Origin: Candidatus Xenobia bacterium
GTDB taxonomy: Bacteria > Vulcanimicrobiota > Xenobia > Xenobiales > QWHO01
Direction: 5' to 3'
NCBI GenBank assembly: GCA_045863235.1
Contig: BTUM01000046.1
Coordinates: forward strand, 1-63,355
DNA length: 63,355 nucleotides
Below the pieces are notes generated by a model. The model searched no databases. It had not been told where the DNA came from and was given only the letters and a program-made list of their open reading frames with translations. Each line of letters opens with the position of its first letter. The stretch's first letter is position 1. Shown here in pieces: positions 8,588 through 34,631 of this stretch. The translations under genes and the position numbers were made by a program.

Positions 8588-10444
8588 ATGGCGGTCGCCG
8601 GCTTGGAAGCGACAACCTACCCGTTCAATCTGCGGGTCTTGCTGCGGAGAAGGGCGCAGATCAAGCAAGAGCTTGCCGAAAGAAGCATTCGCCCTTTGAG
8701 AGTTGCCTGCCTCGGAGGCTCGAGCACGCAGGAACTGGTTGACTTTCTTGAACTCTTCCTCCTTAAGCTTGGTTTTCGGCCTGAGCTTTTCGAATCCGAC
8801 TTCAACCGTTATCTGGAAGAAGCTCTCTTCCCCGGGCCGGAGCTGCAAAGTTTCGCTCCCGAGGTCGTCGTCGTGCATAACGGATTGCACAACCTGCAGC
8901 ATCTGCCCACTGCTTCAGACCAGGGGACCACCGTCGCCGACAAGCAAATGCGGTCGCTCGATAGCTTACTGGCCGCCGTCGATTCGTTACACCGTCACTT
9001 TGGATGTTGCGTCGTGCTCAACAATCTCCCCTATCCAGATTATCGCGTGCTGGGCAATCTGGATGGCACCGACCCGAGAGGACTTTGCCACTTCATTCTG
9101 GGTCTCAACCTTGCCCTGGCTGCAAACCGAACGGGGCGGGAGTTCTTGCAGGTCCATGACGTCCACTACCTGTCCGCCCAGATTGGCCTCGACCATTACT
9201 TTGATCCTGCCCGCTGGCACCTCTACCGAATCGCCGAAAGCTCGCTGGGCACCGTGCATCTGGCTCACAGCCTCTCGCGGGTCATCGGCTCTCAATTCGG
9301 AGCCTCAAAGAAGTGCCTGGTAGTCGACCTGGACAACACGCTCTGGGGAGGCGTGATCGGCGACGACGGCGCTGACGGAATCGAGCTTGGGCCCGAAACT
9401 GCCAGCGGAGATGCCTTCCAGGAATTCCAACGCTATCTTCAGCAACTGAAGCAGCGAGGAGTTCTGCTGGCTGTCGCCTCAAAGAACGATCCAGACAAGG
9501 CTCTTCAAGGCTTGGGCCATCCCCATTCTCAATTGGGACCGCAAGACTTCGCAGCCTTTGAAGCGAGTTGGGATCCCAAGGATCAGAGCCTGCATAAAAT
9601 CGCCAAAGAACTCGGACTGGGCCTGGACAGCTTTGTTTTTCTGGACGACAACCCGTTTGAGCGCGAGCTTGTGCGGGCCCAGTGCCCGGTCAGCGTTCCC
9701 GAGGTGATCGAGGTCGGAGACTTTCGACGGGTCATCGATCGGGAGCGGTATTTCGAGCCGGGGTCAGTCACGGCCGAAGACCTGAAACGTAGCGCCCACT
9801 ACCAGGCCGAGCGGGGAAGGGCTGAGGCCAGCAGCCGGTTCGCCAGTTACGACGACTACCTTCGCTCGCTCGAGATGGAGGCTCTGGTGGAGAGCTTCTC
9901 CCCTGGTGACCTCGAACGCATCGCCCAACTGGTCAACAAGACCAATCAGTTCAACCTGACCACCAGACGACTCTCCCTTCCTCAACTCCAGGAGTTGTGC
10001 CAACGGGGGTGGCTGAATCTCTCAGCCAGGCTGAGAGACAAGCACCAGGATTACGGGTTGGTCTCGGTGGTTCTGGGCGAATACCGGGGAACCCAACTGC
10101 ACCTCGCATTGTGGTTGATGAGCTGTCGGGTGCTCAGACGAGGGTTGGAGAATGCGATCTTCGAAAAGGTCGTCGAGGTGGCTCGAGAGCGCGGAACGTC
10201 CGAGATCTGGGGTTATTACTTGCCCACCGAGAAGAATCAAATGGTAGCCGATTTTTACCCCCAGTTGGGCTTCTGCCCGGCCGAAGGCAGGCCCGATGCC
10301 CCCGTCCAGGGCCAGGCCTTCCGCCTGGAGCTCGGGCTCTACCGGCCCACTCAGCATTGCATAAGGAGAGTCTATTCCAGTGAGCGATGTCCTGGTAACG
10401 GTTCAGGAGATCCTGCGCGACATACTGAACCAACCTACTCTTGA
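8588..10444 (+). CDS. fkbH: FkbH-like HAD-IIIC phosphatase / glyceryl-ACP transferase
   Basis: KKCLVVDLDNTLWGG (HAD DxD), ASKN, FVFLDDNP, KTNQFNLT and LMSCRV. Has an N-terminal extra domain and is directly followed by an ACP. Confidence 0.93.
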   Translation: MAVAGLEATTYPFNLRVLLRRRAQIKQELAERSIRPLRVACLGGSSTQELVDFLELFLLKLGFRPELFESDFNRYLEEALFPGPELQSFAPEVVVVHNGLHNLQHLPTASDQGTTVADKQMRSLDSLLAAVDSLHRHFGCCVVLNNLPYPDYRVLGNLDGTDPRGLCHFILGLNLALAANRTGREFLQVHDVHYLSAQIGLDHYFDPARWHLYRIAESSLGTVHLAHSLSRVIGSQFGASKKCLVVDLDNTLWGGVIGDDGADGIELGPETASGDAFQEFQRYLQQLKQRGVLLAVASKNDPDKALQGLGHPHSQLGPQDFAAFEASWDPKDQSLHKIAKELGLGLDSFVFLDDNPFERELVRAQCPVSVPEVIEVGDFRRVIDRERYFEPGSVTAEDLKRSAHYQAERGRAEASSRFASYDDYLRSLEMEALVESFSPGDLERIAQLVNKTNQFNLTTRRLSLPQLQELCQRGWLNLSARLRDKHQDYGLVSVVLGEYRGTQLHLALWLMSCRVLRRGLENAIFEKVVEVARERGTSEIWGYYLPTEKNQMVADFYPQLGFCPAEGRPDAPVQGQAFRLELGLYRPTQHCIRRVYSSERCPGNGSGDPARHTEPTYS

Positions 10445-10622
10445 GTTGACCGCAATGACCACCGCCCAGGAAGTGCCTGGCTGGGATTCCCTGGCCCACA
10501 TCAACCTGGTGGCCGCCGTCGAGGAGGAGTTCCGTATCCGATTTGCCATGGCCGAGCTCCAGAAGCTCCAGAACGTTGGCGAGATGGTGGCCCTGATTGA
10601 GAGGAAGGCCGGGCGCAACTGA
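10380..10622 (+). CDS. Acyl carrier protein (WDSL type)
   Basis: 80-aa acidic protein with the GWDSLAHINL phosphopantetheine motif. AAGGAG SD upstream of the GTG. Confidence 0.93.
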   Translation: MSDVLVTVQEILRDILNQPTLELTAMTTAQEVPGWDSLAHINLVAAVEEEFRIRFAMAELQKLQNVGEMVALIERKAGRN

Positions 10623-11560
10623 CCGGGAAGCGCTTTGTTCTGGCCTTTCTGGCCCTGGTTCTGGGGGCGAGCGGTTTGGTCGTCGTCGCTTCGGCATGGG
10701 CCGACCCTTATGGGCTGTTTGGCGTTGGGGACCGGTCCATTCCGGTCTACGACAATGAGCGCCTCTCCAAGTATCTCTTGAGCTATCGCTACATTCCCGC
10801 CAGGTTTGATGCTCTCCTGATCGGACCTTCCGTGAGCGCCAACCTCGACCCCGCATTGATTCCCGGCTTGAAGCTCTACAACGGCTCTCTGGATGGTGCC
10901 AACGCTTGCGAGCTGGCGATCCTGGCCCGCAACGTCATGAGCCGGGGACGACCTTCCCACCTCTTTATCGCTGTGACGCCCATCGTCTTGCGCAACCACG
11001 AGATGGAGACCAGGGCACTGCAGCCTGAGCAGCTTTCGGTAGCCTTGGGCTCTCTCGATCTGGCCAAAGCGGTGTGGGTGTCAATTCGGGTGCCTCGTCA
11101 GGATTTGCGCATCGACCCCAAAGGCTACACCAAGCCAGTGCAGGCCAGCAAAGCCAGAGTCGAGCAGTCGATCGAGAGATTCTTGCGCGAGCACGGCTCC
11201 GGCCAGGCTGCCTCGGAATACTGGCATATCGATCCCCGGGCCCTCGAGTGCCTGGCGCAGGTCGTGGGCGAGGCTCACCAGCGATCAATCAAGGTGGTTG
11301 GCTTCTTCCCACCCATCCCGGCACCTATCTACCAGACTTGTCAGGCGAGGCATCGAACCTTCAAGACGCGAGCTCTGAGCTGCTTCGGCCCGACCGACAC
11401 GGTCATCGACTTCAATGAGGATCAGTATGCCCGGCTCCGAAGCGATCTGGACAACTTTACGGACAGTGTCCACCTGAGCGCCGCAGGCGCCAAAGTGGTG
11501 ACGGAAACTATCGGGGGCGCGCGGCTCGAAGGCCCAAAGCGTGCCGAACCGGGCGGGTGA
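10619..11560 (+). CDS. Membrane-anchored SGNH-like protein (DltD-like acyl-transfer partner); probable CTG start
   Basis: TM anchor then DPYGLF, block-I-like LLIGPSVS and a C-terminal FTDSVHL (DxxH). The ORF track starts at TTG 10676, but the frame is open from 10601 and CTG 10619 restores the full anchor. Confidence 0.7.
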   Translation: MTGKRFVLAFLALVLGASGLVVVASAWADPYGLFGVGDRSIPVYDNERLSKYLLSYRYIPARFDALLIGPSVSANLDPALIPGLKLYNGSLDGANACELAILARNVMSRGRPSHLFIAVTPIVLRNHEMETRALQPEQLSVALGSLDLAKAVWVSIRVPRQDLRIDPKGYTKPVQASKARVEQSIERFLREHGSGQAASEYWHIDPRALECLAQVVGEAHQRSIKVVGFFPPIPAPIYQTCQARHRTFKTRALSCFGPTDTVIDFNEDQYARLRSDLDNFTDSVHLSAAGAKVVTETIGGARLEGPKRAEPGG

Positions 11561-12401
11561 GATCCAACAGGTGGTGCCACAGAAGCGTCCAGGGGCGAAG
11601 GAGATAGAAATAGAGCTTGAGGGTGCCTGCCCAGCTGCGCCTCACTCCGGAGTCGGTAAGGCGATGGGTGCTCTCGTGCATACTGTGAAGGTGCCAGTAA
11701 CCACCGGCGGCCGCTAGATTCGCGAGCACGTCGGCTGAAGGCAGGCTGTAGACAGTCTGACCTGCCCCCGCGTGAGAGTAATCGTGGTTCTGGTGAATAC
11801 AAACCACCGAAGGAGTGATGTCCACAACACTGCAGCCTTGCCGTCGAGCATTCCAGACCAACCAGTTGTCGAACCACAGGCGTCCAATGGCAAATTGAGG
11901 AACGTCCTTGAAGAGGCCTCGATTGAAGACAAAGAAGTCCATGGCCTTTCTGCCTCGGGACCTGCCTTTCGAACGGGCTCGCTGAGTGAGCGTGGCAGCC
12001 CAGTCGGGATCAGTAAAAGCGATGGGCTCTGGAACCTCGATATCCAGACACTCGCCGATGGCAAGAAAGTCATCATTCCAGCTCAAGAGGCGCTCGAGTG
12101 CCCGCCGAAAATCCGGAGTCAGCACGATGTCGCTGTTGATGTAGCAGAGTCGGTCAAAACGCGCGGCGCACTGAGCCTGCTCAAAGAGATCGGAGATCAG
12201 GGGCACGCCTTTCGGCGTAGCCTGCACATCCGGGAGGTGAACAGCGCCGATCTCCCGCGCGAACTCTCGAGTCCCTTCGTCATTTCCCAACAGGATGATC
12301 TCCGCCTCGGGGATGCACCGAATCCAGCTCAGAATTGCGTTACGCTGCAGTAAGCTAGAGCGAGCCACGAACCCTTTGGGGCAGGTAAAGAAAGAGAGCA
12401 C
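11508..12401 (-). CDS. GT-A fold glycosyltransferase-like protein
   Basis: MLSFFTCPKGF...QRNAILSW, YINSDIVL (DxD-like), DFFVF, GRLWFDNW and HQNHDY. Co-oriented with the nucleotide-sugar genes. Confidence 0.65.
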   Translation of the reverse strand: MLSFFTCPKGFVARSSLLQRNAILSWIRCIPEAEIILLGNDEGTREFAREIGAVHLPDVQATPKGVPLISDLFEQAQCAARFDRLCYINSDIVLTPDFRRALERLLSWNDDFLAIGECLDIEVPEPIAFTDPDWAATLTQRARSKGRSRGRKAMDFFVFNRGLFKDVPQFAIGRLWFDNWLVWNARRQGCSVVDITPSVVCIHQNHDYSHAGAGQTVYSLPSADVLANLAAAGGYWHLHSMHESTHRLTDSGVRRSWAGTLKLYFYLLRPWTLLWHHLLDLTRPVRHALGLRAARPR

Positions 12402-12402
12402 G

Positions 12403-13773: not shown

Positions 13774-13782
13774 GTGAGTCTC

Positions 13783-14802: not shown

Positions 14803-14921
14803 AACAATAACTCTCCAGAGTGTCCAAAATGCCCAGTTGAAGAGGCGCATTCTACTCCGCGAGGCGACATTCTCCTCCCACAAAGGTCTCGCTTGCTGTT
14901 CTAACGAAACCTGCGGCCCCG

Positions 14922-15815
14922 ATGTCCATCGAGCGACACAAAACCGCCCGAGCCGTTCTTCTCGCCGTTCTCATCATCGCAGCCGTAGGCTTGTTCTGGC
15001 CTCGCGGCTACGAAGGGATTGCCAAGAGCGAGTTCTGGGCCCGCAAGAAACTCTGGCGACGCTGCTTTGACACCGTCGTTGCCGGAGACTCGCGGGCCTA
15101 TCATTCTCTATTTCCGACCGAAATGGCCCCGCTGGCGCGGGGAAGAACCATCGGGAACTTCGGGTTTGCTGGCTGCGCCATCGAGAAACGCTACCTGGAC
15201 GCCGTCGACCAAGTGCTCGACCTGCGCCCTGGACGCGAACGAACAGTCATCCTGGCAATCACGCCCCATTCACTCACCCGCCTGGCCCATCAGTCAAACG
15301 GATTTCTCGAGCTCAACCGCGTCAACCGACTTGAGCTTCTGGCGCTAAGCCGCCTGGGTGGCATTCGGGACCTGGGCGACCCGATTACGGCCGACGATGT
15401 CAAGAACCAGATCCGAGGCGTGCGTTACATCCAGACGCTCAAGCCCGATGGCTCGATTGCAGCCTACAAGACGCCCGAAAATCCAAAGGAGGCTCTGTCG
15501 GAGTACCGAGCCCGTCTTGAGACCACGGAGCTGCGCCCGGAGTCACTGCAGGAGCTGAGCTCGGCCATCCAGGCCTGGACAGCCCGCGGGGTGAGGGTCG
15601 TCGGTTTTCGCCCCCCTACCACCACTGCCATGGTCGAGCTCGAGGAGCAACTTCTCCCCTATCCACCCGTCCCTCAACTGTTCCAGTCGGCAGGGGGCCA
15701 GTGGCTGGAGATCCCCCCGGCAGCCTATCCGACCTATGATGGGAGCCATCTGCGCTTCGACGGGGCCGCCAGGTTCTCACAAGACTTCGCCCGGATGCTC
15801 TGGCCGAGCCGGTAG
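14922..15815 (+). CDS. Membrane-anchored SGNH-like protein (MBOAT partner)
   Basis: N-terminal TM, VVAGDSRA, NFGFAG and C-terminal YDGSHL (DxxH). Sits 2 nt upstream of MBOAT #2. Confidence 0.72.
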   Translation: MSIERHKTARAVLLAVLIIAAVGLFWPRGYEGIAKSEFWARKKLWRRCFDTVVAGDSRAYHSLFPTEMAPLARGRTIGNFGFAGCAIEKRYLDAVDQVLDLRPGRERTVILAITPHSLTRLAHQSNGFLELNRVNRLELLALSRLGGIRDLGDPITADDVKNQIRGVRYIQTLKPDGSIAAYKTPENPKEALSEYRARLETTELRPESLQELSSAIQAWTARGVRVVGFRPPTTTAMVELEEQLLPYPPVPQLFQSAGGQWLEIPPAAYPTYDGSHLRFDGAARFSQDFARMLWPSR

Positions 15816-15817
15816 CT

Positions 15818-17224
15818 GTGCTCTTCAACTCCTTTATCTTTCTGCTGTTTGCCCTGATCTACTTCGCCGGCTGGCCGGCCGTCCGCAACCGACCGGTCTT
15901 GAAGTATGCCTACATTGTGGTCTGCTCACTCTTCTTCTACGGGTTCAACGAACCGATCTACATTCTGCTACTGGCATTCACGGGCTTCATCGACTTTGTG
16001 GCCGGACTGATGATGGAGCGCTACCTGCCCCACCGCAAAGCCATTCTGCTTTTCTCATTGATCGCCAACATCAGCGTTTTGGCAGTCTTCAAGTATTCCG
16101 GATTTCTAGCAACCAACCTGAATGCATTGCTCGGTCTCGATCTCCCGGTTCCCAACCTCACTCTTCCCATCGGCATCAGCTTCTACACTTTCCAGTCCAT
16201 GAACTACACGATCAGCGTCTACCGAGGAGACATCCGGGCCACTCGCAACCCTCTCCATTTCTTTGCATTCATTGCCCTGTTTCCGCACCTGGTAGCCGGC
16301 CCGCTGGTCCGTGCATCGGACATCCTCCCGCAATTGCGCGAATGTCGGGGAGGAACGGACAAGCAGGTCTGGGACGGTCTTCAGCTCATTGCGAAAGGCT
16401 TCTTCAAGAAGAATGTGCTGGCCGACAATTTTGCCCCGGCCGTCAATGCCGCCTTTGCCGGCGTGTCCGACAACCCGGGTGGAAGCCTCTACTGGTGGAC
16501 GGTGGGGCTACTCTTCTCGGCCCAAATCTACTGTGACTTCAGCGGCTACACAGACATCGCCAGAGGGCTGGCCAAGTGGATGGGCGTCGAATTCACGGTC
16601 AATTTCAATCACCCTTACTCGGCCGTGAGCATGCGAGACTTCTGGCAGCGCTGGCACATCTCGCTGTCGACCTGGTTTCGCGATTACGTCTACATCCCGC
16701 TCGGCGGCTCCCGTGGCTCGATGGTGCAGTCGCTCAGCAACATGTGGGTCACGATGCTCATTTCCGGGCTCTGGCACGGAGCTTCCTGGACCTACGTCAT
16801 CTGGGCGGCGCTCCATGCTGGCTACCTGAGCCTGGAGCGCGTCAGTGGTTGGCCAGCCCGAGTTCGGTTGCTGCCCGGAGGCTCCTTTGCGTGCGCCCTG
16901 ATCGTAAATCTCTTGGCATGCGTGGCCTGGATTTTCTTCCGAGCAACCTCGCTGGGAGACGCTGCCCTGATACTGCAGAGGATGCTTTCCCTGGACTGGT
17001 GGCGCTCGAGCGACCTTTTGTTGATTCGAAACGAAATCGGAACAGTTGTTCTCGCCTGGTTGGCGCTGTTCTGGGCCGCCGAGGCCTGGAACTTCCTCCG
17101 AGAGCACTACTTCCGCCGGCTGACCATTCCCGAATGGGCCCAACCCCTCGCTGTCGGCGCCCTGCTGGCGGCGTCAGTGTTCTTGAGGGGGCCGGGCGGA
17201 GCATTCATCTATTTCCAGTTCTAG
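15818..17224 (+). CDS. MBOAT O-acyltransferase, AlgI family (#2)
   Basis: LPIGISFYTFQ, FPHLVAGP, DFSGYTDIA, FWQRWHISLS, GLWHGA and C-terminal FIYFQF. Confidence 0.95.
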   Translation: MLFNSFIFLLFALIYFAGWPAVRNRPVLKYAYIVVCSLFFYGFNEPIYILLLAFTGFIDFVAGLMMERYLPHRKAILLFSLIANISVLAVFKYSGFLATNLNALLGLDLPVPNLTLPIGISFYTFQSMNYTISVYRGDIRATRNPLHFFAFIALFPHLVAGPLVRASDILPQLRECRGGTDKQVWDGLQLIAKGFFKKNVLADNFAPAVNAAFAGVSDNPGGSLYWWTVGLLFSAQIYCDFSGYTDIARGLAKWMGVEFTVNFNHPYSAVSMRDFWQRWHISLSTWFRDYVYIPLGGSRGSMVQSLSNMWVTMLISGLWHGASWTYVIWAALHAGYLSLERVSGWPARVRLLPGGSFACALIVNLLACVAWIFFRATSLGDAALILQRMLSLDWWRSSDLLLIRNEIGTVVLAWLALFWAAEAWNFLREHYFRRLTIPEWAQPLAVGALLAASVFLRGPGGAFIYFQF

Positions 17225-18606
17225 AAATGAGCATAGATGAAGCTCACCCCGCGACTCGAGCAAAGAAAGAGACACCCCAGCAAGAAGGCGACTGTCGTAA
17301 CCAGAAGCTGGCTCCGGCCGGGCTTGAAATCTTCGAGCAACTGTCGAGTCGAGGGCGCCAGGAACGCGACGGCGGCACCCAGGACGAACGAACTCGAGAT
17401 GATCGCGCTATCGAACGTGTCGAATCGGTCCCCCCAAAGAATCGTCTTTGTGCCTGCCCAACCAGCCAGATTCCCCAGCATCCGCGAACAGGTCGTCAGA
17501 TCGGGCGAGCGGAAGAGCACAAACGATAAGATCACGAAGACCTGGGTGAGGGCCAGGGCTGCCAGCCTCGGTAGCCCACCTCGGCGGCGATGCCAAAGAT
17601 GGTGAGCCACCAGGCCGAATCCGTGCATCGCGCCCCAGAGCAAGAACATGACCGTCAACCCGTGCCAGAGGCCACAGATGACCATGGACAGCCAGGTAGC
17701 CGTCATGGCCCAGGAGAAGCTGACCCGTCGCCCTTTGAGCCGCGCCAGCGAAAAGTATACGTAGTTGGTGATGAAGGCGGTGAGCGACATGTGCCACTCG
17801 CTCCAGAAGCGCACCAGACTGGAACAACGATAGGGGCGCTCGAAGTTGATGGGCAAACGAATTCCTAACATCAGTCCGGCTCCCAGGGCCATGTCGCTGT
17901 AGCCCGAAAAATCCAGGAATATCTGGAGATAGTAGCCCACCGCAACCACCCAGGCATCCAGCACCCTGAGTCCTTCGACCTGGGCGTAGCCAGGGTCGAC
18001 CAACATCGCCAGGGAATCAGCCAGGACCACCTTCTTGAAGAGTCCGAACGAGAAGACAAACAATCCGGCCGCGCAGTCGTCCCATCGAGGCAGATTTGAC
18101 GAGAAGCCGAGGTGCTGCTCGAGCGTGTCCGAAGGCCTGGGAATCGGGCCGGCTACGACCTGAGGGAAGAAGGCGACAAAATTCCAATAGTCAAGCCTGG
18201 CTGGCTGGACCCAGACGCCCTGGTAGCTGTCCACCAACACCATGATCTGTTGAATTGTGTAGAAACTGAGTCCGATGGGCGCCAGGGGGGACTCGCCGGG
18301 GGCCTCGGCCACGAGGTCCCAGCCCGAAGCCACCAGCTTGTAGGAGAAGAGCCACAGCACATTGGCGAAGAGACCCAGCCAGAGCTTGCGCAGCCGAATC
18401 GGAGGGCTTGTCTCGCGAGAAATCGACCCCGCGAGAGAATAATTCAGGCCGAGCGAGAGAAGAAAGCTCGGAAACGCCCGCCAATCGACCAGCAGGTAAA
18501 ACAGCGCCGACAGGCAGGCGAGCGCCCAGGGTCGTCGCCAGCGAGCCAGGATGGCGATGCTCAGGGGCAGGAACATTAAAATGTAAGGCAGGGACAGGCT
18601 GCTCAT
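17221..18606 (-). CDS. MBOAT O-acyltransferase (#3, more divergent)
   Basis: PIGLSFYTIQQ, FFPQVVAGPI, DFSGYSDMA, FWSEWHMSL, GLWHG and C-terminal FIYAHF. Confidence 0.93.
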   Translation of the reverse strand: MSSLSLPYILMFLPLSIAILARWRRPWALACLSALFYLLVDWRAFPSFLLSLGLNYSLAGSISRETSPPIRLRKLWLGLFANVLWLFSYKLVASGWDLVAEAPGESPLAPIGLSFYTIQQIMVLVDSYQGVWVQPARLDYWNFVAFFPQVVAGPIPRPSDTLEQHLGFSSNLPRWDDCAAGLFVFSFGLFKKVVLADSLAMLVDPGYAQVEGLRVLDAWVVAVGYYLQIFLDFSGYSDMALGAGLMLGIRLPINFERPYRCSSLVRFWSEWHMSLTAFITNYVYFSLARLKGRRVSFSWAMTATWLSMVICGLWHGLTVMFLLWGAMHGFGLVAHHLWHRRRGGLPRLAALALTQVFVILSFVLFRSPDLTTCSRMLGNLAGWAGTKTILWGDRFDTFDSAIISSSFVLGAAVAFLAPSTRQLLEDFKPGRSQLLVTTVAFLLGCLFLCSSRGVSFIYAHF

Positions 18607-18652
18607 CCAGGAGCCCTGAGGTTTGCGCCCTCAGCACCCGACACCTCCCGTC

Positions 18653-19969
18653 TCAGCGCGGGTAGGGCAGGCGGGCCAGCATTGCATAGGTATTGTCACC
18701 CAGCCCCGGCATGGGCCGAAAATCGACCGCATCGTGCCAGGCCTGCCAGAGCCCCAGCTCTCCCGAAGCCAGGAACGGCTGCGCAGGTCGCAAAGGGGGA
18801 TTGAGCAAGGTCACGGTGGCTCGAATTCCTCCCGGATCGGCCATGAGAACCTCCGAACCAGTGCTGATGTAGACGGTGCCCGGGGCCTGGCCAGCCAGGA
18901 CGGCGGGCTCGGCTCGCGGTGGAGCAACGACGGCGGCCGGAACGAGCTGGCCCCCTTCGGAGGTCAGCCAACAGGCGTAAGTTCCACGCCCGCGGACCGA
19001 CCACACGACGCAGAAGCGATCGCCCGAGCCCGCTACTGAGACGATCCGGAAAAACTTCGTATGTGCCGGCCCCGGGCCGATCTCGAAAGAGGCCCCAATG
19101 GGCCTCAATTGCAGGTCGAGCAGCCGCCCTCGAATCGGCCGATCGTCAGTCCGGGCATCGACCCAGACCACCAGGGCGCGCCCTGCGGCGCTGGCTAAAG
19201 CGGGAAACTCGGCCATTTCTTTGTCACTGAGCCGAATGATCGGTCCGAGCTCTCGACCTGGCCCCAGGAGGCGTGCGCTCACCACTCCGTCCACCGACCA
19301 GACGACGGCCGGTCGGTTGACTACCAGCCCCAGACTGGGCATCTCTCCGGTCGACCCGGCCGAAGCCAGCAATTCCGGGCCATCGGGAGACCCGTCAGCA
19401 TGAAACCTGCGCACGAACACACCCTTCCCCTGACGGACCAGGACACCGGGATTGTCTGAGGCGTGCCATGAGCACCAGAACTCCCCGTCGGGTGCACCGA
19501 CCAGCGAGCTGTGGTGGGCCAATAGTCCGGCACTGGGCCCAGAATTGACCCGCCGCTCGGGAGTGAGGAAGCGGCCCTCTTGATTCAAGACCCGGCCATA
19601 GATCTTATAGGTTTGACGGTCTCGCGCGTCGCGCATCATCCACACGGTCAGCACCGTCCCCGAGGCATTCTCGGCGACCGCGACACATTCACTCATCCCG
19701 GCCGTGACTCGCTCATCCAGTCGAAGCGGCCCGACGCTGGCAGACCGGCTGGTGACCGGGCTTGGCCTCCACAGGCCCGTCGTCAGGCGAATGCAGTCCC
19801 ACAGACAGGTCAGTTTACCCAGCGGCCCCGCCGGATACTCCGGGGTCGCAGAGCTCCAGCGAAGGGCGACTCCCGGGGCAACCCCCCCCGCCAATAGGAA
19901 CATTACCAACAATCCAGCTGACAACCAGCAGCCCTTTCTCATTCCTGGAGCCACTTCGACACCCTTCAT
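18653..19969 (-). CDS. Hypothetical exported protein (beta-rich repeats)
   Basis: 438-aa ORF with an N-terminal hydrophobic segment and recurring 'VVW...(I/V)xxRxL' units. No family recognised. Confidence 0.6.
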   Translation of the reverse strand: MKGVEVAPGMRKGCWLSAGLLVMFLLAGGVAPGVALRWSSATPEYPAGPLGKLTCLWDCIRLTTGLWRPSPVTSRSASVGPLRLDERVTAGMSECVAVAENASGTVLTVWMMRDARDRQTYKIYGRVLNQEGRFLTPERRVNSGPSAGLLAHHSSLVGAPDGEFWCSWHASDNPGVLVRQGKGVFVRRFHADGSPDGPELLASAGSTGEMPSLGLVVNRPAVVWSVDGVVSARLLGPGRELGPIIRLSDKEMAEFPALASAAGRALVVWVDARTDDRPIRGRLLDLQLRPIGASFEIGPGPAHTKFFRIVSVAGSGDRFCVVWSVRGRGTYACWLTSEGGQLVPAAVVAPPRAEPAVLAGQAPGTVYISTGSEVLMADPGGIRATVTLLNPPLRPAQPFLASGELGLWQAWHDAVDFRPMPGLGDNTYAMLARLPYPR

Positions 19970-24839: not shown

Positions 24840-26029
24840 TGCTGCGCATTGCCTACCCATCGGTCCTCGACCTGGCTGCCGAATCAGCTCCTGTGACGCA
24901 CACCCTGGAGATCTCCAACGGTCTGGCCAGGCTGGGACACCAGGTCCGCGTTTGGGCTCCGGCCAGGCCGCCCGAAATGGACTTTGCATACAGCCGGCTC
25001 TGGTGTTTCTGGCGCCTCCCGCGCTGGCATCGGCTCCGACAATGGCTCCTGTGGAGAGAGGCCGCCCTTCGTTTTCTAGCGAGCCATACAAGACGCCGCT
25101 TCGATTGCATCTATGCGCGATACGAGGCCGGGGCGGGCCCGATTATCCGGGCCGCCCGCCTGGCAGGAGTCCCGCTCTTCCTTGAAATCAATGGAACCAC
25201 TCGCCAGATTGGAACATGGGGCCATCTTTCGGCCGAGGACTGGCAAAGGCTCAACGCCACCTGGACCCGCGACCTCCATCTGGCTACCGCCTTGCTGACT
25301 ACCGGGCCGGGCATCGTGAAATCCCTGGGGGACCTCCACGGCATTGCGAAAGAGCGAATGTTCGTCATCGAGAACGGGGTTGACGCATCAACTTTTCGGC
25401 CCCTCGATCGGATGGAATGCCGGCGTCAGCGAGGCATTCCTCCAGCAAGACTCATCCTTGGCTATGTTGGCTCTTACCAAATTTACCATGATTTGAAGAC
25501 CCCCCTCCAGTCCGTGGCGCAGTTACGACAGCAGGGGTGCGATTCGTGGCTTTACTGTCTGGGCAAAGGCCGCCTGAGGGAAGGTTATGCTCAACTTGCA
25601 CAAGAACTAGGGGTCGCAGATTTCGTTCGCTGGCTGGATCCCGTGCCAAAGAGCGAAGTCGCGAGTTTCATCAACTGCATTGATTATGCATTGAACACGA
25701 TTCATGGAGCGCTAGCGGAGGAGATCCGCTCCTTCAAACTGCTCGAGTATCTGGCCTGTGGTTGCCCGGTCATTTCCACCCGCCTGGAAAGCGGAGCGGA
25801 TCCAATGGCCCGCTACGTGCTCGAGGTACCGCCCGACGATCCGAAAGCGCTGACCGAGCTGTTGCTTCGGGTAAGGGATGACCCGGCTCCAAGGGCTCAA
25901 GCCCTCAAGGCCAGTCAGGTTGTCGCCCAGGATTACAGTTGGGAACGCGCAGCGAGGCAAACTGCAGCAGCGCTGGCGAGCTTCGTCAGGGAGCTCAACT
26001 TCCCGCGCCGGCCTGGGCCAGTTGTTTGA
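24839..26029 (+). CDS. Glycosyltransferase family 4
   Basis: ATG overlaps the upstream stop. IENGVD, GYVGS and KLLEYLACGCPVI motifs. Confidence 0.88.
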   Translation: MLRIAYPSVLDLAAESAPVTHTLEISNGLARLGHQVRVWAPARPPEMDFAYSRLWCFWRLPRWHRLRQWLLWREAALRFLASHTRRRFDCIYARYEAGAGPIIRAARLAGVPLFLEINGTTRQIGTWGHLSAEDWQRLNATWTRDLHLATALLTTGPGIVKSLGDLHGIAKERMFVIENGVDASTFRPLDRMECRRQRGIPPARLILGYVGSYQIYHDLKTPLQSVAQLRQQGCDSWLYCLGKGRLREGYAQLAQELGVADFVRWLDPVPKSEVASFINCIDYALNTIHGALAEEIRSFKLLEYLACGCPVISTRLESGADPMARYVLEVPPDDPKALTELLLRVRDDPAPRAQALKASQVVAQDYSWERAARQTAAALASFVRELNFPRRPGPVV

Positions 26030-27782
26030 AGGGCTCACACGTTTCCAGCAGGTTGCGGTACTGTCCACGAGCGAGTATCTGACCCTGATCCACGACCAGA
26101 ATCTCGTCGCACTCACTCAGTGTAGCCAGCCGATGAGCGATGATCAAAATGGTCTTGCGTCCCTTGAGGCTCTGGAGTGCCCCCAGGAAGGCCTCCTCGG
26201 TCACCGTATCCAGGGCGCTGGTAGCCTCGTCAAAGACGATGAAACTCGGGTCGTGATAAATCGCCCGGGCGATTCCGATCCTCTGTCTCTGCCCTCCGCT
26301 CAACCGAACCCCACGCTCTCCAACATTGGTCTCGAGGCCCTCCGGCAGCTCCTCTACAAAACTGCCGAGTTGGGCGATCTCCAGCACTTCGCGCACGCGG
26401 GCGGTGTCGACCTGGTCGGCGGCAATCCCATAGCCGACATTGTTTCGAATGCTGTCGTCGGCCAAGAAGATGTGCTGGGGAACGTAGCCGATGGCCCTTT
26501 GCCACGCTCGCAAATTCTCGCTTGTCAGAGGTGACTGATCGATCAGAACCCGACCCGCTGTGGGGGAGAGCAAGCCCATCAGCAGGTCGACGAAGGTCGT
26601 CTTGCCCGATCCCGTAGTGCCCACGACTCCTATGGTACGATTGGCGGGGAGACTCAAACTCAATCCGCTCAGTACCGTCTCGCTGGCCCCAGGATACGCG
26701 AAGTCAACGCCCTCCAGCGTGATCGAGTCGCCAAGCATCATCCGCTCGCAGGCAGTCTGGGCAGACGAAGTCGGGGTCGCAAGACGCAGATCCTGGGTGA
26801 TTTCGCTCAAGAAGGGCCGATAGTAGCGGATCAAAGCGAGCGAGCTGAAGACTTGCTGCAGAGCAGGCATCATCCGGTAACCCGACAGAGCGAACAGTGC
26901 CAGGGTCGGCAAAATGGTGGCCACATTCTCACCTCTCCACAAGAGAAACAGAACGGCCACCACCAGGGTCCCGAAGGTCACGGTCTCGACCAGGTAACGG
27001 GGCACCGTGGACAGGAGTTGAGTACGCTCCTGGCTGTGCACCCATCGATTGGTGCTTTCTTGAAATTGATCCGCGAGGTGCTGCTCGCACCCGAGAATCT
27101 TCACCTCCTTCATGGCACTGATCGCCTCGATCACAACCGAGGTTCGTCGGTTGGCGGCCGCTCGCAAGGTGATGCCTTCGCGGGTCACCACCCGATCGAC
27201 CAGTCGGTAGATCAGCGCATAGGCGCCTCCGAGAATGAGAGATACCATGCCAGCCAGGGCTGGCCGGGCCAACAGCATCACGAGCAGGAAGCAGACAATG
27301 ACAAAGAGGCGACTCACCAGCAAGATCATTGGCTGGTAAATTCCTATGGCGATCCGATAGCCAAGGGTCAGGAGTTTGTCTTCCCTTGCTCGTTTCTGAA
27401 TCTGCTCGACATAGGGTCGATCAAGATGCGATCGAAACAGAGCCCCGGCCAGAGTCCGTGCCTGCTGAGCGACAAATTCCTTGCTGAGGAACATGAAGAG
27501 GGCCCCTGTACCATTGGCCACACCGATGGCAAGAACGGTGGTAAATCCGAGATAGAATAGGAACTGCTGGGTATCGACACAGCCCAGCGCCTGGTAGGCC
27601 TGCTTGAGATACGGGTTCTCCAGGACTCTCTCGGGAGCTGCCACGGCCGCCAGAAAGGGCAAAACTGAGGTAGTGCCGACCATCTCCACGAAGCCGGCCA
27701 AAATGCCGGCCACTAGAATCAAATAGAACCTTCGTCGCGAACTGGCCGACAAGAGCGCCAGCGCTTGCGATATTAGAGACAA
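25995..27782 (-). CDS. ABC transporter, fused TMD+NBD (PglK/HepA-like glycan exporter)
   Basis: Multiple TMs, GTTGSGKT, YVPQ, LSGGQRQRIGIARA, VFDEATSALD and IAHRL. External-helix-like segment ENPYLKQAYQALG. GAGGG precedes TTG 27782. Confidence 0.88.
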   Translation of the reverse strand: MSLISQALALLSASSRRRFYLILVAGILAGFVEMVGTTSVLPFLAAVAAPERVLENPYLKQAYQALGCVDTQQFLFYLGFTTVLAIGVANGTGALFMFLSKEFVAQQARTLAGALFRSHLDRPYVEQIQKRAREDKLLTLGYRIAIGIYQPMILLVSRLFVIVCFLLVMLLARPALAGMVSLILGGAYALIYRLVDRVVTREGITLRAAANRRTSVVIEAISAMKEVKILGCEQHLADQFQESTNRWVHSQERTQLLSTVPRYLVETVTFGTLVVAVLFLLWRGENVATILPTLALFALSGYRMMPALQQVFSSLALIRYYRPFLSEITQDLRLATPTSSAQTACERMMLGDSITLEGVDFAYPGASETVLSGLSLSLPANRTIGVVGTTGSGKTTFVDLLMGLLSPTAGRVLIDQSPLTSENLRAWQRAIGYVPQHIFLADDSIRNNVGYGIAADQVDTARVREVLEIAQLGSFVEELPEGLETNVGERGVRLSGGQRQRIGIARAIYHDPSFIVFDEATSALDTVTEEAFLGALQSLKGRKTILIIAHRLATLSECDEILVVDQGQILARGQYRNLLETCEPFKQLAQAGAGS

Positions 27783-27975
27783 GAGACACCCTCTGACAAA
27801 GTGATTCAAAGTCCTCGAAGAGGGCGTTTGCAGCACTCTGCGCTCAACAGATTGTCTGAGGTGCCGCGCGTCAAAGACTGGCGCAGCGCCGTTCAACAGA
27901 CTTCTACACATCCGCGCGTCCTTATTCTGAACAGGTCAACGGGCGGGAGTGTAGCAGGCTGATGAACTCAAGCCT

Positions 27976-28950: not shown

Positions 28951-29016
28951 GCTGGAAGGGACTGTGGGGCGCGAAGCGTATCAGCTTTCGAATTGTATCC
29001 GCAAGACCCTGCAAGC

Positions 29017-30156
29017 ATGAGAATCGCCCACATCATCACCCGCATGGTCCATGGTGGCGCCCAGATCAATACCCTGATGTGTGCTGTCGAGCAAGCCCGC
29101 CAGGGGCACGACGTAACTCTCGTGACCGGGGTCCAGAGCGGCTCAGAGGGGAGCATTCTCGAGCAAGCCCACCGCTCGCCAATCCGGGTCATCGAGGTTC
29201 CCCCTCTGGTGCGAGAGCTCAATCCCCTGCTCGACCTCGTCGCACTTAACCGGCTTTATCGTCTTCTCGGTGAGGGCTATGACATCGTGCACACGCATAC
29301 CTCCAAGGCTGGCATTCTGGGGCGAGCCGCGGCCCGTGCCCGCAAAGTGCCGATCATCGTCCACACCTCGCACGGCCACGTGTTTCACAGCTTCTTTCAC
29401 CCCTGGAAGGCCAGACTTTTCGTTGCCCTGGAACGAATCGCTGCCCGTTGGTGCGATCGGCTGGTTATGCTGACGGAAGGGGAATTGCGTGATCATCTAG
29501 CTGAGAAGATTGCCCCGCCAGAGATGTTCACGGTGATCCCGAGTGGGGTGGATCTATCGCCCTTCCCTCGACGCGCATCGCTTCCGCGAGACTCGACAGT
29601 GGTGGGCACAGTTCTTCGGCTTGTGGCTATCAAGGGGGTGCTCGACCTGCTCGACGCCTTTGCCCTGGTCCATCAGGCCCTTCCGAGCGCAAGGCTGGTG
29701 ATCGCGGGCGATGGCCCTCTCAGGGCCGAGGTGCAAGCCAAAGTGGTGAAGTTGGGCCTGCAAGACCAAGTATCCCTCCTGGGCCACGTTGAGCCTGGCA
29801 GTGTTCTGCCAACCTATGACGTGTTCGTCATGCCGTCTCACAACGAAGGGATGGGCCGGGCCGTCGTGGAGGCTATGGCCACGGGGCTTCCGATTGTGGC
29901 AACCGAAGTTGGCGGCCTTCCAGACCTGGTCGAGAATGGCCTGAATGGGCTGTTGGTTCCTCCCAGGGAGCCGCGGGCACTGGCAAAGGCCATCGAGAAA
30001 CTATTGCGAGAGCCGCAAACTGCCTGGCGGATGGGGGAGGCCTCGTATGAGCGCTCACGAGAGTTCACCGAGCAGGTGATGTTCGAGCGACTCGGTTCGC
30101 TCTATCAATCCCTCGCTCTGGAGCGGGCGGGGAAGCGACTCCACGCCGCAAGCTAA
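29017..30156 (+). CDS. Glycosyltransferase family 4
   Basis: MRIAHIITR..GGAQ, VHTHTSKAG, HTSHGH and EGMGRAVVEAMA. The ORF-track extension to 28708 overlaps gmd2 and is unlikely. Confidence 0.93.
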   Translation: MRIAHIITRMVHGGAQINTLMCAVEQARQGHDVTLVTGVQSGSEGSILEQAHRSPIRVIEVPPLVRELNPLLDLVALNRLYRLLGEGYDIVHTHTSKAGILGRAAARARKVPIIVHTSHGHVFHSFFHPWKARLFVALERIAARWCDRLVMLTEGELRDHLAEKIAPPEMFTVIPSGVDLSPFPRRASLPRDSTVVGTVLRLVAIKGVLDLLDAFALVHQALPSARLVIAGDGPLRAEVQAKVVKLGLQDQVSLLGHVEPGSVLPTYDVFVMPSHNEGMGRAVVEAMATGLPIVATEVGGLPDLVENGLNGLLVPPREPRALAKAIEKLLREPQTAWRMGEASYERSREFTEQVMFERLGSLYQSLALERAGKRLHAAS

Positions 30157-30258
30157 TGTGCTCGCACTTTGGTTTTGCACATTAGCACAATCTGACGAAC
30201 GCGCCGGAACTTCGTTCCTGCGCGTTGTAAAGTGCAAGACCAGAGGCCTTGCACTTTA
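30152..30258. terminator. Three consecutive hairpins between convergent genes
   Basis: 30152-30161/30177-30186 (10 bp), 30198-30210/30214-30226 (12 of 13 bp) and 30228-30238/30248-30258 (11 bp). Confidence 0.55.
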
Positions 30259-30290
30259 GCTAGAAGCTTGGGGCGCGGGCGGAGACCGTG

Positions 30291-31139: not shown

Positions 31140-31875
31140 AAACACCTCCAGGCAAAGAGCTGCAACCCACAATCGGTGAAGTTCGAGTCCCTAAAATTAA
31201 TTCCCGAGTGCGCTCCCAACCGCAATTCATCAGTGCATCCAGCACCGAAAGGCCGGGTCGAAACTCCTTGGTCCCCACCTGCGGATACGGATGCGCGTGA
31301 AAGCGGGTGATCTCCAGCCTGAGCCCTCGCTCGTCGAACGGCTCGGGTGACTGGTAAGTCGCACCCCCACCAGAGACATAAGTATGTCCCCCGACGAGTT
31401 GGACGATCTGAGCATTCATGTTGTTCTTGTATTCGGTCACCTCCAGGTCGGCACTGTCTCGCCAGGCCAGCTTGAATTCCAGGCCACGGAGGATCTTCTG
31501 CAGCAGCTCAGCATTCCGGAGGGCTAGAAGATCGGACTCGTGTTGATAGAACGCCTCGACCAGCGGCAAGAACTCATTGAAATAGGGAGCCGAGCGGTAA
31601 TTTTGCTCGATCCAACGCTGCTGCTTCTTCAGGAGCTTGCTCTCCCTCTCGATCCGCAACTCGCTGATGGGAACAAAGGTTCCTTCCGTTCGACAGAGCG
31701 GAACCGTGAACCACTCAGCCTCACCGTCCACCATCATCTGGACCCGCTTGAGATAGCGACAGTTCTTTACATCGACGACACAGTGAGTCAAGCAAACGAA
31801 AACATCAGCCTGACTCAGCTTAAAAAAGAATCCCAGCCAGGGAAAGAAGTCGGGTTGGTGGATGGCGACTTTCAC
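31036..31875 (-). CDS. wbqC: WbqC-family protein (putative glycine transfer to O-antigen-type glycans)
   Basis: VAIHQPDFFPWLGFF, QNYRSAPYF, YVSGGGA, YPQ and LSVLDALMNCG. Confidence 0.85.
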   Translation of the reverse strand: MKVAIHQPDFFPWLGFFFKLSQADVFVCLTHCVVDVKNCRYLKRVQMMVDGEAEWFTVPLCRTEGTFVPISELRIERESKLLKKQQRWIEQNYRSAPYFNEFLPLVEAFYQHESDLLALRNAELLQKILRGLEFKLAWRDSADLEVTEYKNNMNAQIVQLVGGHTYVSGGGATYQSPEPFDERGLRLEITRFHAHPYPQVGTKEFRPGLSVLDALMNCGWERTRELILGTRTSPIVGCSSLPGGVCGANFRDHSELGEGKVKEPRASSGGLDRSVDPAG

Positions 31876-32138
31876 CTGGGCTGAAAACCGAGGGGAGGTA
31901 TGACCGCACCTGCCTTTTTCCGTGTGAGGGTCGGAAGGGTAGGAATCGACAAGCAATGCCTCCACCAGCGTTCAGCGTGAGGCGGGCGCCCTGATCCGAA
32001 CGGCAAACCGATAGCTGACCTCCTTCTCGCGGGCGACGGCGCGTCGTGATGCATGACCATACGGGCGGTCCTTTCTATCCCGTGGCTTGCGGGCCTGCCG
32101 GAAGGCAAACTGCCCTCGTGCTCGTATAAGCCTGTCCC

Positions 32139-33242
32139 GTGAGCTACCTGATCCGTTTCGTCCTGCTTCCATTCCTTTGCTCTCTCACAGCCAGCTTGCT
32201 GTTGACCTGGCTGGTGCGTTTCCTGGCCAGAACCTTCAAGGTCCTGGACAAGCCCGGTGCCCACAAGCAACACGAGCGCCCGACCCCAACCCTCGGGGGG
32301 GTGGCCGTCTTTCTTGCCTTCGCCCTCGGACTGGCCTGTCTGGGCCCGTTGAGCATGAAGCTCAAGGTGATCCTGCTGTCAGGTGGCTTCCTGGTCCTGG
32401 TCGGCTTGGTGGACGATCTGAGAGGCGTCAACGCCAATATCAAGCTCCTCTGCCTGGCGCTGGCGACCTGCATTCTCTATGCCGGTGGCATTCGACTCGA
32501 CACGGGCGGCATTCAGGGCCTGGCAGCACTTCTGGCTACTTTCCTGTGGATCGGGCTGGTGGCCAGCGCTTTCAATGGCGTAGACAATGCCGATGGGGCG
32601 GCCGGAGGCCTGGCTGCAATCTCCAGTCTGGCGACATTCTTCATTTCATGGTACACCTGGCAGCACGAACTGGCCGTTATCTCCCTGCTGTTGTGCGGCT
32701 CCTCGCTCGGATTCTTGTTCTTCAACTTCCCCAGACCCAAAGCCACCATCTTCCTGGGCGACTCGGGCAGTCTCTTTCTCGGCTTCTGTCTTGGCATCTT
32801 CACGGTCTTGGGCGAATGGTCCGATACCGATTGGAAGGCGGCCGTGCTTGCGGTCTCTCTGGTGCTGGTCCCTCTGTTCGACTTTGGCCTCATCCTGGTG
32901 GTCCGGGGGCTGGACGGTCGCTACAAGCGCTGGGACGACCCGATTCGCATGTGTGCCCGCGACCACACCTTTCATCGCCTCCGAGCCCTGGGGCTGAGCC
33001 CTCGCGCAGCCCTGGGTTGCCTCTACATCGGTGGGGCCGCGACGGGGCTGTTCAGTCTGGTTGGAACGTTACGACCCGACTGGCTCCGGGTGGAAACCGT
33101 GGCTCAGCTCATTGGGTTCTTGGGACTGCTCGCCTTCCTGCTCTGGCGGGTCCCGCTGCCGCCCGGCGCCTATGGAGAGGATGATTCAACCTCAATGACC
33201 AGCCTGGAAGTCGAGCAAACGATAGTTCGAACCGGTCGCTGA
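32139..33242 (+). CDS. wecA: Undecaprenyl-phosphate sugar-1-phosphate transferase, WecA/TagO (MraY family)
   Basis: DKPGAHKQH..PTPTLGG, GLVDD, FNGVDNADG, FNF..ATIFLGDSGS and DHTFHRL. Confidence 0.9.
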   Translation: MSYLIRFVLLPFLCSLTASLLLTWLVRFLARTFKVLDKPGAHKQHERPTPTLGGVAVFLAFALGLACLGPLSMKLKVILLSGGFLVLVGLVDDLRGVNANIKLLCLALATCILYAGGIRLDTGGIQGLAALLATFLWIGLVASAFNGVDNADGAAGGLAAISSLATFFISWYTWQHELAVISLLLCGSSLGFLFFNFPRPKATIFLGDSGSLFLGFCLGIFTVLGEWSDTDWKAAVLAVSLVLVPLFDFGLILVVRGLDGRYKRWDDPIRMCARDHTFHRLRALGLSPRAALGCLYIGGAATGLFSLVGTLRPDWLRVETVAQLIGFLGLLAFLLWRVPLPPGAYGEDDSTSMTSLEVEQTIVRTGR

Positions 33243-34631
33243 CTCTTCCAGCTGTCGCAGCAACCTGATCGCGACCTCCACGGTCGAGAGGGCAGGGTCG
33301 AGGTCGAACGGCAGGTTGGTCTGGTCAGTGCGCATTCTGGGTAGTCGCGCCACCACGAAGCGGTGCTGAGGAGCCTCCAGGGCCAGCCCCCGGAGCCAGC
33401 CTTCCAGGGCCCCCTTGGCCGCCAGGTAGTGGCTGAACTGTGGTTTGGGAAGGCTCAGGTAGGTCGAAGACACAAGCACCAACTGACCACCAGGTCGCAA
33501 GAGAGGCAGAAGCACCCTGGCGAGCTCGACCGAACAGGCCAACGACTGTTGAACAAAGCTCAGCCACTCGACTCCAGATTGCTCTTGGAACAGAGCAGCT
33601 TGAATGGGGGGAGATGCGTTCAACACGCACATGTCGAGGCTCCCCCAGGTCTGGGCAATGGCTCCGGCCAGACGAACGCATTCGTCTGCCCGAGATGCGT
33701 CCCCGAACAACCGCAGCGCTTGTGGAGCGATCTCCGGCTCGAGCTCGAACTCCTGCCGCCCGTGGTAGGCGACTCGAGCTCCCTGCAAAGACAGGGCCTG
33801 GCCGAGTACCGAGCCAAAACCGCGCGAGGAGCCAGAGACAAAGATGTGTCGGCCAGACCAGAACGCGCTCTGGCTCAAACTGGCCCTCACCTCGGCCAGC
33901 GAGACGGTGACCGGGTCGGGCCGCAAGAAGGCCGACAATTGCAGGCGCGAGCCGTCCTCCGCTTCGGCATTGATGCTTACCAGGTTGAATCGCTCGTCGA
34001 AGCGTGCGCTGGCGCTGCTGAACTGGCACAACCCACTACCTGACACTCCGAACTCGATGCTGAGACTCGAGAAGAGCGCCTGTTCGCCTGGACACTCCAT
34101 TCCAACGTAGTAGCTGCTCCAGCAGAGCAGTGCGAGCTGGTCCAGGGGAAACTGTCCCCGGCTCAGTCCGCAGGTATTGAGGGCCTCGTCCAGAGCCTCC
34201 TCGACCAGGGCGTAGGGTTGGGGACAAGAGAGCTCCTCTCCGGGGAGGTAACGTCGGGGTTGCCGACTGGCGGGGCTGGCGGTTGCGGGAAATGACAGCT
34301 CAACGGGGCCGTGACTCGGGGTGAAACTCAAGTCGAGTTGAGAGACTGATCCCCTTTCAAGACTCAGACTCACCCGCTCGCCAGAGTCCTGAATTCGCAT
34401 CTGATAACTGACGCCCACGAAGAGTGGTTTGCGAAAGGTGGCCTTCAATCGCCCAAGACGAAAGCTTCGCCCCGCAGACCACTCACCGAGACAGGCGAGC
34501 ACCGCACAAACGCCATAGACCACGGGTCGCCCAAAAGGCGATCTGCGGGCATAGTCCTCGTGAAGATGCAGAGGGTTGCGGTCTTGAGAGAGCCGCTCGA
34601 AGGCCCGAATCTGCTCAGGACTGAACTTCAC
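33192..34631 (-). CDS. MaoC-like (hot-dog) dehydratase fused to SDR ketoreductase
   Basis: N-terminal hydratase-2 motif LSQDRNPLH...FGRPVVYG. C-terminal SDR with VSGSSRGFG, LNAS and YLAAK (YxxxK). Confidence 0.88.
   Translation of the reverse strand: MKFSPEQIRAFERLSQDRNPLHLHEDYARRSPFGRPVVYGVCAVLACLGEWSAGRSFRLGRLKATFRKPLFVGVSYQMRIQDSGERVSLSLERGSVSQLDLSFTPSHGPVELSFPATASPASRQPRRYLPGEELSCPQPYALVEEALDEALNTCGLSRGQFPLDQLALLCWSSYYVGMECPGEQALFSSLSIEFGVSGSGLCQFSSASARFDERFNLVSINAEAEDGSRLQLSAFLRPDPVTVSLAEVRASLSQSAFWSGRHIFVSGSSRGFGSVLGQALSLQGARVAYHGRQEFELEPEIAPQALRLFGDASRADECVRLAGAIAQTWGSLDMCVLNASPPIQAALFQEQSGVEWLSFVQQSLACSVELARVLLPLLRPGGQLVLVSSTYLSLPKPQFSHYLAAKGALEGWLRGLALEAPQHRFVVARLPRMRTDQTNLPFDLDPALSTVEVAIRLLRQLEESATGSNYRLLDFQAGH

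Follow-up and report, generated by a model that had tools for sequence, protein, structure and literature searches.

Predicted carrier-fed C3-acylation of a surface polysaccharide by dispersed FkbH, carrier, MBOAT and SGNH genes in a Candidatus Xenobia bacterium

Do five genes dispersed within a surface-sugar gene cluster form one route by which a short hydroxy acid is made on a carrier protein and placed on a polysaccharide? The question was raised by contig BTUM01000046.1 of a Candidatus Xenobia bacterium (assembly GCA_045863235.1). The window analysed (63,355 nucleotides) is this entire contig (C46), from a genome of 8.36 Mb that is 97.6% complete. The left 40 kb of the window is a glycan locus by its Pfam and NCBIfam domain content. 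Within it a 26-kb span holds an FkbH-type glyceryl transferase/phosphatase gene (8588..10444, + strand), a stand-alone acyl carrier protein (ACP; 10380..10622, +), SGNH2, which encodes an anchored SGNH-fold protein (10619..11560, +), MBOAT3 (17221..18606, −) and a fusion of a MaoC-type dehydratase with an SDR ketoreductase (DH-KR; 33192..34631, −). The original prediction joined these genes into a Dlt-like pathway in which glyceryl-ACP is converted to lactyl-ACP, exported by an MBOAT and esterified to the surface glycan. The presence of the set was borne out, as all five open reading frames (ORFs) are open at full length and their domains and motifs were confirmed. The prediction also held that the window has no polyketide synthase (PKS) or nonribosomal peptide synthetase, and no domain of either kind, including ketosynthase (KS) and condensation domains, was found among the 56 window ORFs scanned with Pfam; several KS proteins of PKS size are encoded on other contigs of the genome. 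The module is real, coherent and probably undescribed.

Acyl supply would begin with FkbH and the ACP. FkbH scored 291 bits on TIGR01686 (cut-off 147), keeps the HAD motif D247-x-D249 and S512-C-R intact, and carries an N-terminal FkbH_N domain (PF21211). In the available sections of the papers cited here, enzymes of this family are described as dephosphorylating 1,3-bisphosphoglycerate (1,3-BPG) and loading it as glyceryl on an ACP (OzmB; PMC9057759), and FkbH loading modules are tabulated as converting 1,3-BPG to D-lactate-ACP (PMC7901079). The 3′ end of the FkbH gene overlaps the ACP gene by 65 nt. The ACP matched PF00550, with the phosphopantetheine serine S37 in a D36-S37-L motif, and W35-D36-S37 was invariant across 19 aligned ACPs. 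One phosphopantetheinyl transferase was found in the genome. No AMP-binding domain of a DltA-type loader was found among the 56 window ORFs, the ACP being coupled to FkbH instead. FkbH, ACP, SGNH2 and DH-KR each gave one tblastn match genome-wide.

DH-KR was predicted to lie in a glycosyltransferase operon and to be related to the didomain of PKS lactyl starter modules, and both claims were upheld. The gene overlaps the upstream GT4 gene by 17 nt, in a run of overlapping stop and start codons with GT2 and GT4 glycosyltransferases (34615..36707, −; Pfam). MaoC and adh_short domains were matched in Pfam, and the motifs D17-x-N-P-x-H22, GSSRGFG, S388 and Y402-xxx-K406 are intact. Alignment of 48 full-length homologues delineated a distinct family in which D17/H22, S388 and K406 are invariant and Y402 nearly so; fold searches with the whole structure model returned SDR matches only. 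A plasmid search matched DH-KR over its full length to the N-terminus of WP_273995518.1 (28% identity over 488 columns, E 9e-39), a MaoC-SDR-FkbH-ACP-KS protein of plasmid p1 of Burkholderia FERM BP-3421 that we take to be Fr9C. This didomain scored 270 bits on the DH-KR family profile, compared with at most 113 for ordinary SDRs, and the FkbH domain of the same PKS is 31% identical to the window FkbH. In the FR901464 loading module, the DH-KR reportedly takes glyceryl-ACP via pyruvoyl to lactyl-ACP. The FR901464/spliceostatin cluster is located on plasmid 1 of FERM BP-3421 (PMC10589681, available text). DH-KR-FkbH fusions are present in PKSs that are encoded on plasmids and about 5000 aa long; none was seen in a weak search, among 11 profile matches in proteins of 903-2575 aa. 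DH-KR carries the sole MaoC domain of the genome. Since FkbH, this kind of ACP and the MaoC domain each occur once there, DH-KR is left without another evident partner.

On the export side, the SGNH2 frame is open as far upstream as a CTG (10619) that overlaps the TGA stop of the ACP gene; the first listed start is at 10676. Starting at the CTG adds an N-terminal hydrophobic anchor (Kyte-Doolittle value 2.69 vs 1.04), as in homologues, and is the probable start. The structure model has an SGNH fold and matched PatB and sialate esterases (E ~5e-6), PatB being among the best. G-P-S and D-x-x-H were invariant in six aligned homologues. SGNH2 had been called DltD-like. No Pfam family was matched at E<=0.001, DltD was not matched in Pfam even at E<=1, and a profile search of the PDB returned no DltD chain; beyond the shared SGNH fold the label is not supported and is an analogy only. 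SGNH2 is best described as a membrane-anchored SGNH partner with Ser-His-Asp, predicted to act as a periplasmic O-acyltransferase and paired through gene order in relatives. When metagenomes were scanned with the SGNH2 alignment, 41 loci were recovered, with an MBOAT in 35, an ACP in 10 and FkbH in 7; 10 of the 41 have FkbH or an ACP.

MBOATs and SGNH-like genes each number three in the window, and two further MBOATs lie on other contigs. MBOAT3 matched PF03062, with the predicted catalytic H315 within WHG and a C-terminal FIYAHF containing Tyr458. Against DltB it gave E 7e-28, and on TIGR04091 it scored 151 bits, far under the cut-off of 375. That it has no adjacent SGNH partner, as had been claimed, is correct: its neighbours are the convergent MBOAT2 and a 438-aa ORF that matches no Pfam family. 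The claim had omitted two further SGNH-MBOAT pairs and two AT3 acyltransferases. These coupled pairs, SGNH1-MBOAT1 (2817..5346, +) and SGNH3-MBOAT2 (14922..17224, +), have PLGG-type MBOATs that are likely fed by acyl-CoA, outside the ACP route, and leave SGNH2 and MBOAT3 unpaired. MBOAT1 and MBOAT2 were considered as ACP partners and rejected: each is coupled to an SGNH gene of its own, retains PLGG and falls outside the FkbH-linked groups of MBOAT3. All three window MBOATs terminate in FxYxxF. MBOAT2 (+) and MBOAT3 (−) are convergent with stop codons overlapping at 17221-17224, such that the ends coding for FxYxxF abut.

Gene order in relatives, tree grouping and absence of the PLGG loop each tie MBOAT3 to FkbH-ACP-SGNH2, a link already proposed in the original prediction, and because of these it is likely the partner. 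An MBOAT is present in 9 of the 10 SGNH2-family loci that bear FkbH or an ACP, and in 8 of those 9 its best match among the three window MBOATs is MBOAT3. Strong SGNH2 matches were found in 3 of 60 relatives, each inside a contiguous FkbH/ACP/MBOAT/SGNH2 block with an MBOAT nearest to MBOAT3. In G004, a genome of the same genus, FkbH-ACP-MBOAT-SGNH2 forms a single operon, and in G023 and G035 the four cassette genes are contiguous. In a quick maximum-likelihood tree of 67 MBOATs, from which fragments below 340 aa were excluded, MBOAT3 fell in a group of 12 rows (SH-aLRT 100) with 10 FkbH/ACP-linked MBOATs and one row cut by a contig edge; the other four MBOATs of the genome, including MBOAT1 and MBOAT2, were placed elsewhere. 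The PLGG loop, which precedes the catalytic His, is missing from 28 of the 30 linked MBOATs that could be scored (35 rows, 5 not scorable) and retained by 22 of 27 unlinked ones. The two linked exceptions are found some 2 kb from DH-KR and 3.5 kb from FkbH. MBOAT3 and DltB are without the loop and the other four MBOATs of the genome have it; the site presumably lies near the carrier-binding face of DltB. Of 38 FkbH loci newly sampled from the window's phylum, 11 contained an MBOAT, and all 10 scorable adjacent MBOATs were without PLGG, although most come from one family and are not independent (one broken gene was unscored). Gene context points to the ACP as the donor of MBOAT3.

Co-occurrence, which the original prediction proposed as a check for all five genes, was found across genomes for the supply genes. 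The fusion was located at 64 loci in 62 assemblies. Within the fetched flanks, counting partial and frameshifted matches, FkbH was present in 48/64, an ACP in 42/64 and an MBOAT in 28/64. Of the 16 loci without FkbH, 15 were searched genome-wide and 14 had it elsewhere; the sixteenth shares its assembly with a positive locus. FkbH therefore occurs in 61 of the 62 assemblies, against a background of 42/251 genomes of the window's phylum (one unpublished) and 0/14 controls, a background that is a different taxon set in which kin are not independent. Complete cassettes that include the fused DH-KR were found in cyanobacteria (L016, L053) and, within the window's phylum, in G123. In four SGNH2-family loci the ACP is followed by MaoC and SDR as two separate genes; these lie between the ACP and the MBOAT in L102, L104 and L127, and in L113 the MBOAT is upstream. 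Among 46 DH-KR loci of at least 12 kb, 28 have glycan genes by probe match, and a KS is present in 1 of the 64.

Several variants were observed beside these cassettes. Relative G014 (L149:9912-10811) encodes, next to FkbH, an ACP fused with a PglD-like LbH acyltransferase, which suggests a cytoplasmic N-acylation variant. At L128:3453-3881 a gene of the glyoxalase/epimerase family stands between the ACP and the MBOAT, replacing DH/KR. On pSymB of S. meliloti (L154:6342-19609) MBOAT, ACP and FkbH adjoin capsule export genes, with an extra gene annotated as a TonB-dependent receptor that has no Pfam match and a weak SGNH2 match; no DH-KR is annotated in the stretch read.

In the proposed mechanism, FkbH would dephosphorylate 1,3-bisphosphoglycerate and load glyceryl on S37 of the ACP, a reaction established for the family and presumed here. 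DH-KR would then dehydrate glyceryl-ACP to pyruvoyl-ACP and reduce it with NAD(P)H to lactyl-ACP. MBOAT3 is predicted to bind the acyl-ACP at the cytoplasmic face, H315 acylating its own FIYAHF tyrosine, Tyr458, by analogy with DltB/DltX and PatA. The GPS serine of SGNH2 would receive the acyl group and esterify a Wzy-type glycan outside the membrane. The tyrosine-shuttle steps follow those described for PatA/PatB and Dlt (bioRxiv 2024.09.17.613324, available text). Groups derived from acyl-CoA would be added in parallel by the AT3 enzymes and by both MBOAT/SGNH pairs of PLGG type. Every reaction, acyl group and acceptor of the relay is inferred from genes, motifs, homologies and co-occurrence. 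On this footing, operation of a C3-acyl relay from ACP through MBOAT3 to SGNH2 is considered likely. For the whole path, in which FkbH-ACP, DH-KR, MBOAT3 and SGNH2 would yield a lactylated surface polysaccharide, we lean towards its being correct, with some reserve.

A number of findings weigh against this path. Fused DH-KR was present in only 6 of the 38 FkbH loci of the phylum, with one further split pair (this survey was used instead of a count of 3/251 genomes, which scored 6 candidates per genome and undercounts). No full-length DH-KR match was found in the 60 relatives, and the G004 genome (97% complete) encodes the cassette but lacks any MaoC domain. DH-KR lies 22 kb from the FkbH set, on the opposite strand, in a run of glycosyltransferase genes. 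In a FastTree phylogeny the window FkbH falls (support 100) among those of cassettes in which DH/KR are split or missing, and the window's fused DH-KR is without a close neighbour in the comparison; because of these two placements the set is probably a mosaic in which DH-KR was separately acquired. The dependence of DH-KR on FkbH is one-way, and DH-KR is optional. An MBOAT is present at only 28 of the 64 DH-KR loci. An LbH transferase occurs at 6 of them and a condensation domain at 4, and one plasmid DH-KR cassette pairs with a WcbI-type acetyltransferase; lactyl-ACP would therefore have other sinks. As for the transferase, the MBOAT at the majority of SGNH2-family loci is of PLGG type, with neither FkbH nor an ACP present, MBOAT3 is a long branch in the quick tree, such that the grouping alone is not conclusive, and the PLGG counts, drawn from a few clades, lack independence. 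The net basic charge of the loop was compared as a possible marker of ACP binding and showed no difference (2.47 vs 2.37).

Four alternatives were considered. The same relay might deliver glyceroyl, or O-methylated glyceroyl or lactyl, with the separately acquired DH-KR inactive or partly active on the ACP. Besides G004, cassettes are complete in L125 and L128, where DH/KR are missing altogether; methyltransferase genes adjoin the cassettes of L141, L147, L148 and L104 (7/38 phylum loci), and the window has two, at 37043 and 42635. The Campylobacter jejuni flagellar glycosylation locus also has an FkbH gene and makes dimethylglyceric-acid glycans, the two not being tied together in the available text (PMC7099621). 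We nevertheless consider this unlikely, given that DH-KR almost never occurs without FkbH, that the genome offers it one FkbH and one such ACP, and that its motifs are intact. Lactyl-ACP might instead be used in the cytoplasm, or by an AT3 or WbqC-like enzyme, or by an N-acyltransferase encoded elsewhere, acting on a nucleotide sugar or lipid-linked unit, leaving MBOAT3 and SGNH2 as an ordinary acetylation pair. The 36/64 DH-KR loci without an MBOAT in the flank, the 6 with an LbH transferase and the WcbI-type plasmid cassette would fit this, as would the two AT3 genes and one WbqC-like gene of the window (Pfam). It is improbable, however, since the SGNH2 frame overlaps the stop codon of the ACP gene, MBOAT3 belongs with the FkbH-linked MBOATs and has no PLGG, no LbH gene was found among the 56 window ORFs scanned, and AT3 was present in 2/64 and WbqC in 0/64 DH-KR loci.

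Instead of a Wzy polysaccharide, the relay might acylate a glycolipid, the glycan of a protein or a small molecule that is secreted; or lactyl-ACP might prime one of the PKSs of the genome in trans. MBOATs of suomilide clusters acylate small-molecule glycosides, and in the available text these clusters hold an FkbH domain too (PMC10143770); here PKS-size KS proteins are encoded on other contigs, and 18 of the 46 long DH-KR loci have no glycan-probe match. All five genes nonetheless lie within the glycan locus of a window free of KS and condensation domains, and an anchored SGNH partner is a mark of systems that acylate envelope polymers (bioRxiv 2024.09.17.613324, available text), which leaves these options with little probability. 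Decay of the cassette to a non-working remnant would explain the scatter, as the operon order of relatives is broken here and MBOAT3 is a long branch; with five full-length ORFs, intact catalytic motifs and distant DH-KR/FkbH pairs in other genomes, it appears very improbable. The lactyl relay onto the surface polysaccharide is retained as the preferred account.

The remaining features of the glycan locus are those of a polysaccharide cluster. A split Wzc is encoded by a tyrosine kinase half (97-891, −; TIGR01007 over cut-off) and a chain-length determinant half (1202-2692, +; TIGR03007 weak), both assigned to the candidate acceptor glycan. GT2/GT4 genes, two GDP-mannose dehydratases and a UDP-sugar dehydrogenase were matched in Pfam, together with a WecA/MraY-type initiating sugar-phosphate transferase (32139..33242, +; PF00953), an ABC transporter (25995..27911, −; ABC_membrane and ABC_tran), which may be the flippase, a sulfotransferase and methyltransferases. 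A Wzy/O-antigen-ligase-like membrane protein (37900..39261, +) was recognised from Atlas look-alikes of Wzy_C (score 0.99; no direct Pfam match). A 915-aa lipoprotein-like PD40 beta-propeller protein is encoded at 20062-22809, and three large ORFs of the window match no Pfam family (18653-19969, 438 aa; 40599-42638, 679 aa; 59120-63337, 1405 aa). The checked glycan genes (window 1-40000) have a GC content of 55-63%, compared with 65.8% for the genome, consistent with acquired DNA.

Outside the glycan locus, 44131-52975 holds a lasso-peptide-like or PqqD-family cassette. It comprises a PqqD/B1 gene (48143-48454), a B2 gene (48451-48888, over cut-off) and an asparagine-synthase-like cyclase (48885-50759), accompanied by an HprK-like kinase, an ABC transporter, a nucleotidyltransferase, an O-antigen-ligase-like gene and a methyltransferase carrying a weak PqqD match. 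No obvious precursor peptide was found among ORFs of at least 30 aa in 46300-48500. Contigs of sequencing run X1, possibly the source sample, have similar depth over all window bins; single X1 contigs cover 9289-11345 (FkbH-ACP-SGNH2) and 32283-34040, and none covers the entire region. A short element at 30150-30260 and 27900-27954 has high depth in X1, with joints between both sites, and is probably a dispersed repeat.

If the account is right, an MBOAT fed by FkbH and an ACP would be a second carrier-fed route beside teichoic-acid D-alanylation, and MBOAT/SGNH systems would handle hydroxy acids derived from glycolysis in addition to acetyl and D-alanyl groups. The route would supply a genetic source for glyceroyl and lactyl esters on bacterial polysaccharides; gellan carries an L-glyceryl ester. 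The PKS loading module would be a portable acyl-supply cassette and the PLGG loop a testable predictor of donor type; the pSymB cassette of S. meliloti (MBOAT, unknown gene, ACP, FkbH) offers a cultured host. More broadly, and with slightly less than even confidence, we suggest a widespread, undescribed class of envelope acylation in which lactyl-starter chemistry operating without a PKS supplies an MBOAT that accepts ACP-bound groups and carries its own tyrosine shuttle, so that a surface glycan is lactylated; loss of PLGG would mark ACP-fed MBOATs and allow scattered genes to be assigned by sequence. No description of an FkbH/ACP-fed MBOAT route was found in the main texts of the openly accessible papers searched, which do not include the key Dlt paper, and FkbH was encountered there together with MBOAT only in papers on cyanobacterial peptides. 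What the window contributes is a form of the module that is scattered and probably mosaic and in which MBOATs compete, a direct link to the didomain of the FR901464 producer and a sequence marker for picking partners.

Among known systems, the DH-KR-FkbH(GAT)-ACP loading module of the FR901464/spliceostatin PKS and of comparable trans-AT PKSs has the same four functions and a DH-KR homologous over its full length, but here the proteins stand alone, FkbH has an extra N-terminal domain, no KS is nearby and the sink is MBOAT/SGNH. The C. jejuni flagellar glycosylation island likewise holds an FkbH gene (cj1302) in a glycan locus and makes dimethylglyceric-acid pseudaminic acid, although the available text of PMC7099621 names no MBOAT, SGNH or DH-KR there and does not tie FkbH to the acyl group. 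The O-acetyltransferases PatA/PatB, AlgI/J/X and WssH/I share an MBOAT ending in FxYxxF and an N-anchored SGNH protein, PatB being matched by the SGNH2 fold. They are described as carrier-less and as using acyl-CoA, and MBOAT/SGNH pathways other than Dlt are stated to lack a carrier protein (bioRxiv 2024.09.17.613324, 2024, available text), whereas here the ACP gene is coupled to the SGNH gene. Dlt (DltA/C/B/X/D) shares the dedicated phosphopantetheine carrier, the MBOAT catalytic His, the FxYxxF tyrosine shuttle, the anchored SGNH protein and, in DltB, the absence of PLGG. The system would work like Dlt but differs from it in several respects: the loader is FkbH instead of the adenylation enzyme DltA, the predicted group is a C3 hydroxy acid, MBOAT3 is no DltB equivalog, SGNH2 has no DltD match, the context is a Wzy-type glycan, and the shuttle motif is fused to the MBOAT3 C-terminus where Dlt has it on the DltX microprotein (no separate search for a microprotein was made). 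By its gene content, the system is a hybrid of carrier-fed Dlt and the fused shuttle of PatA/AlgI, and not a copy or member of Dlt.

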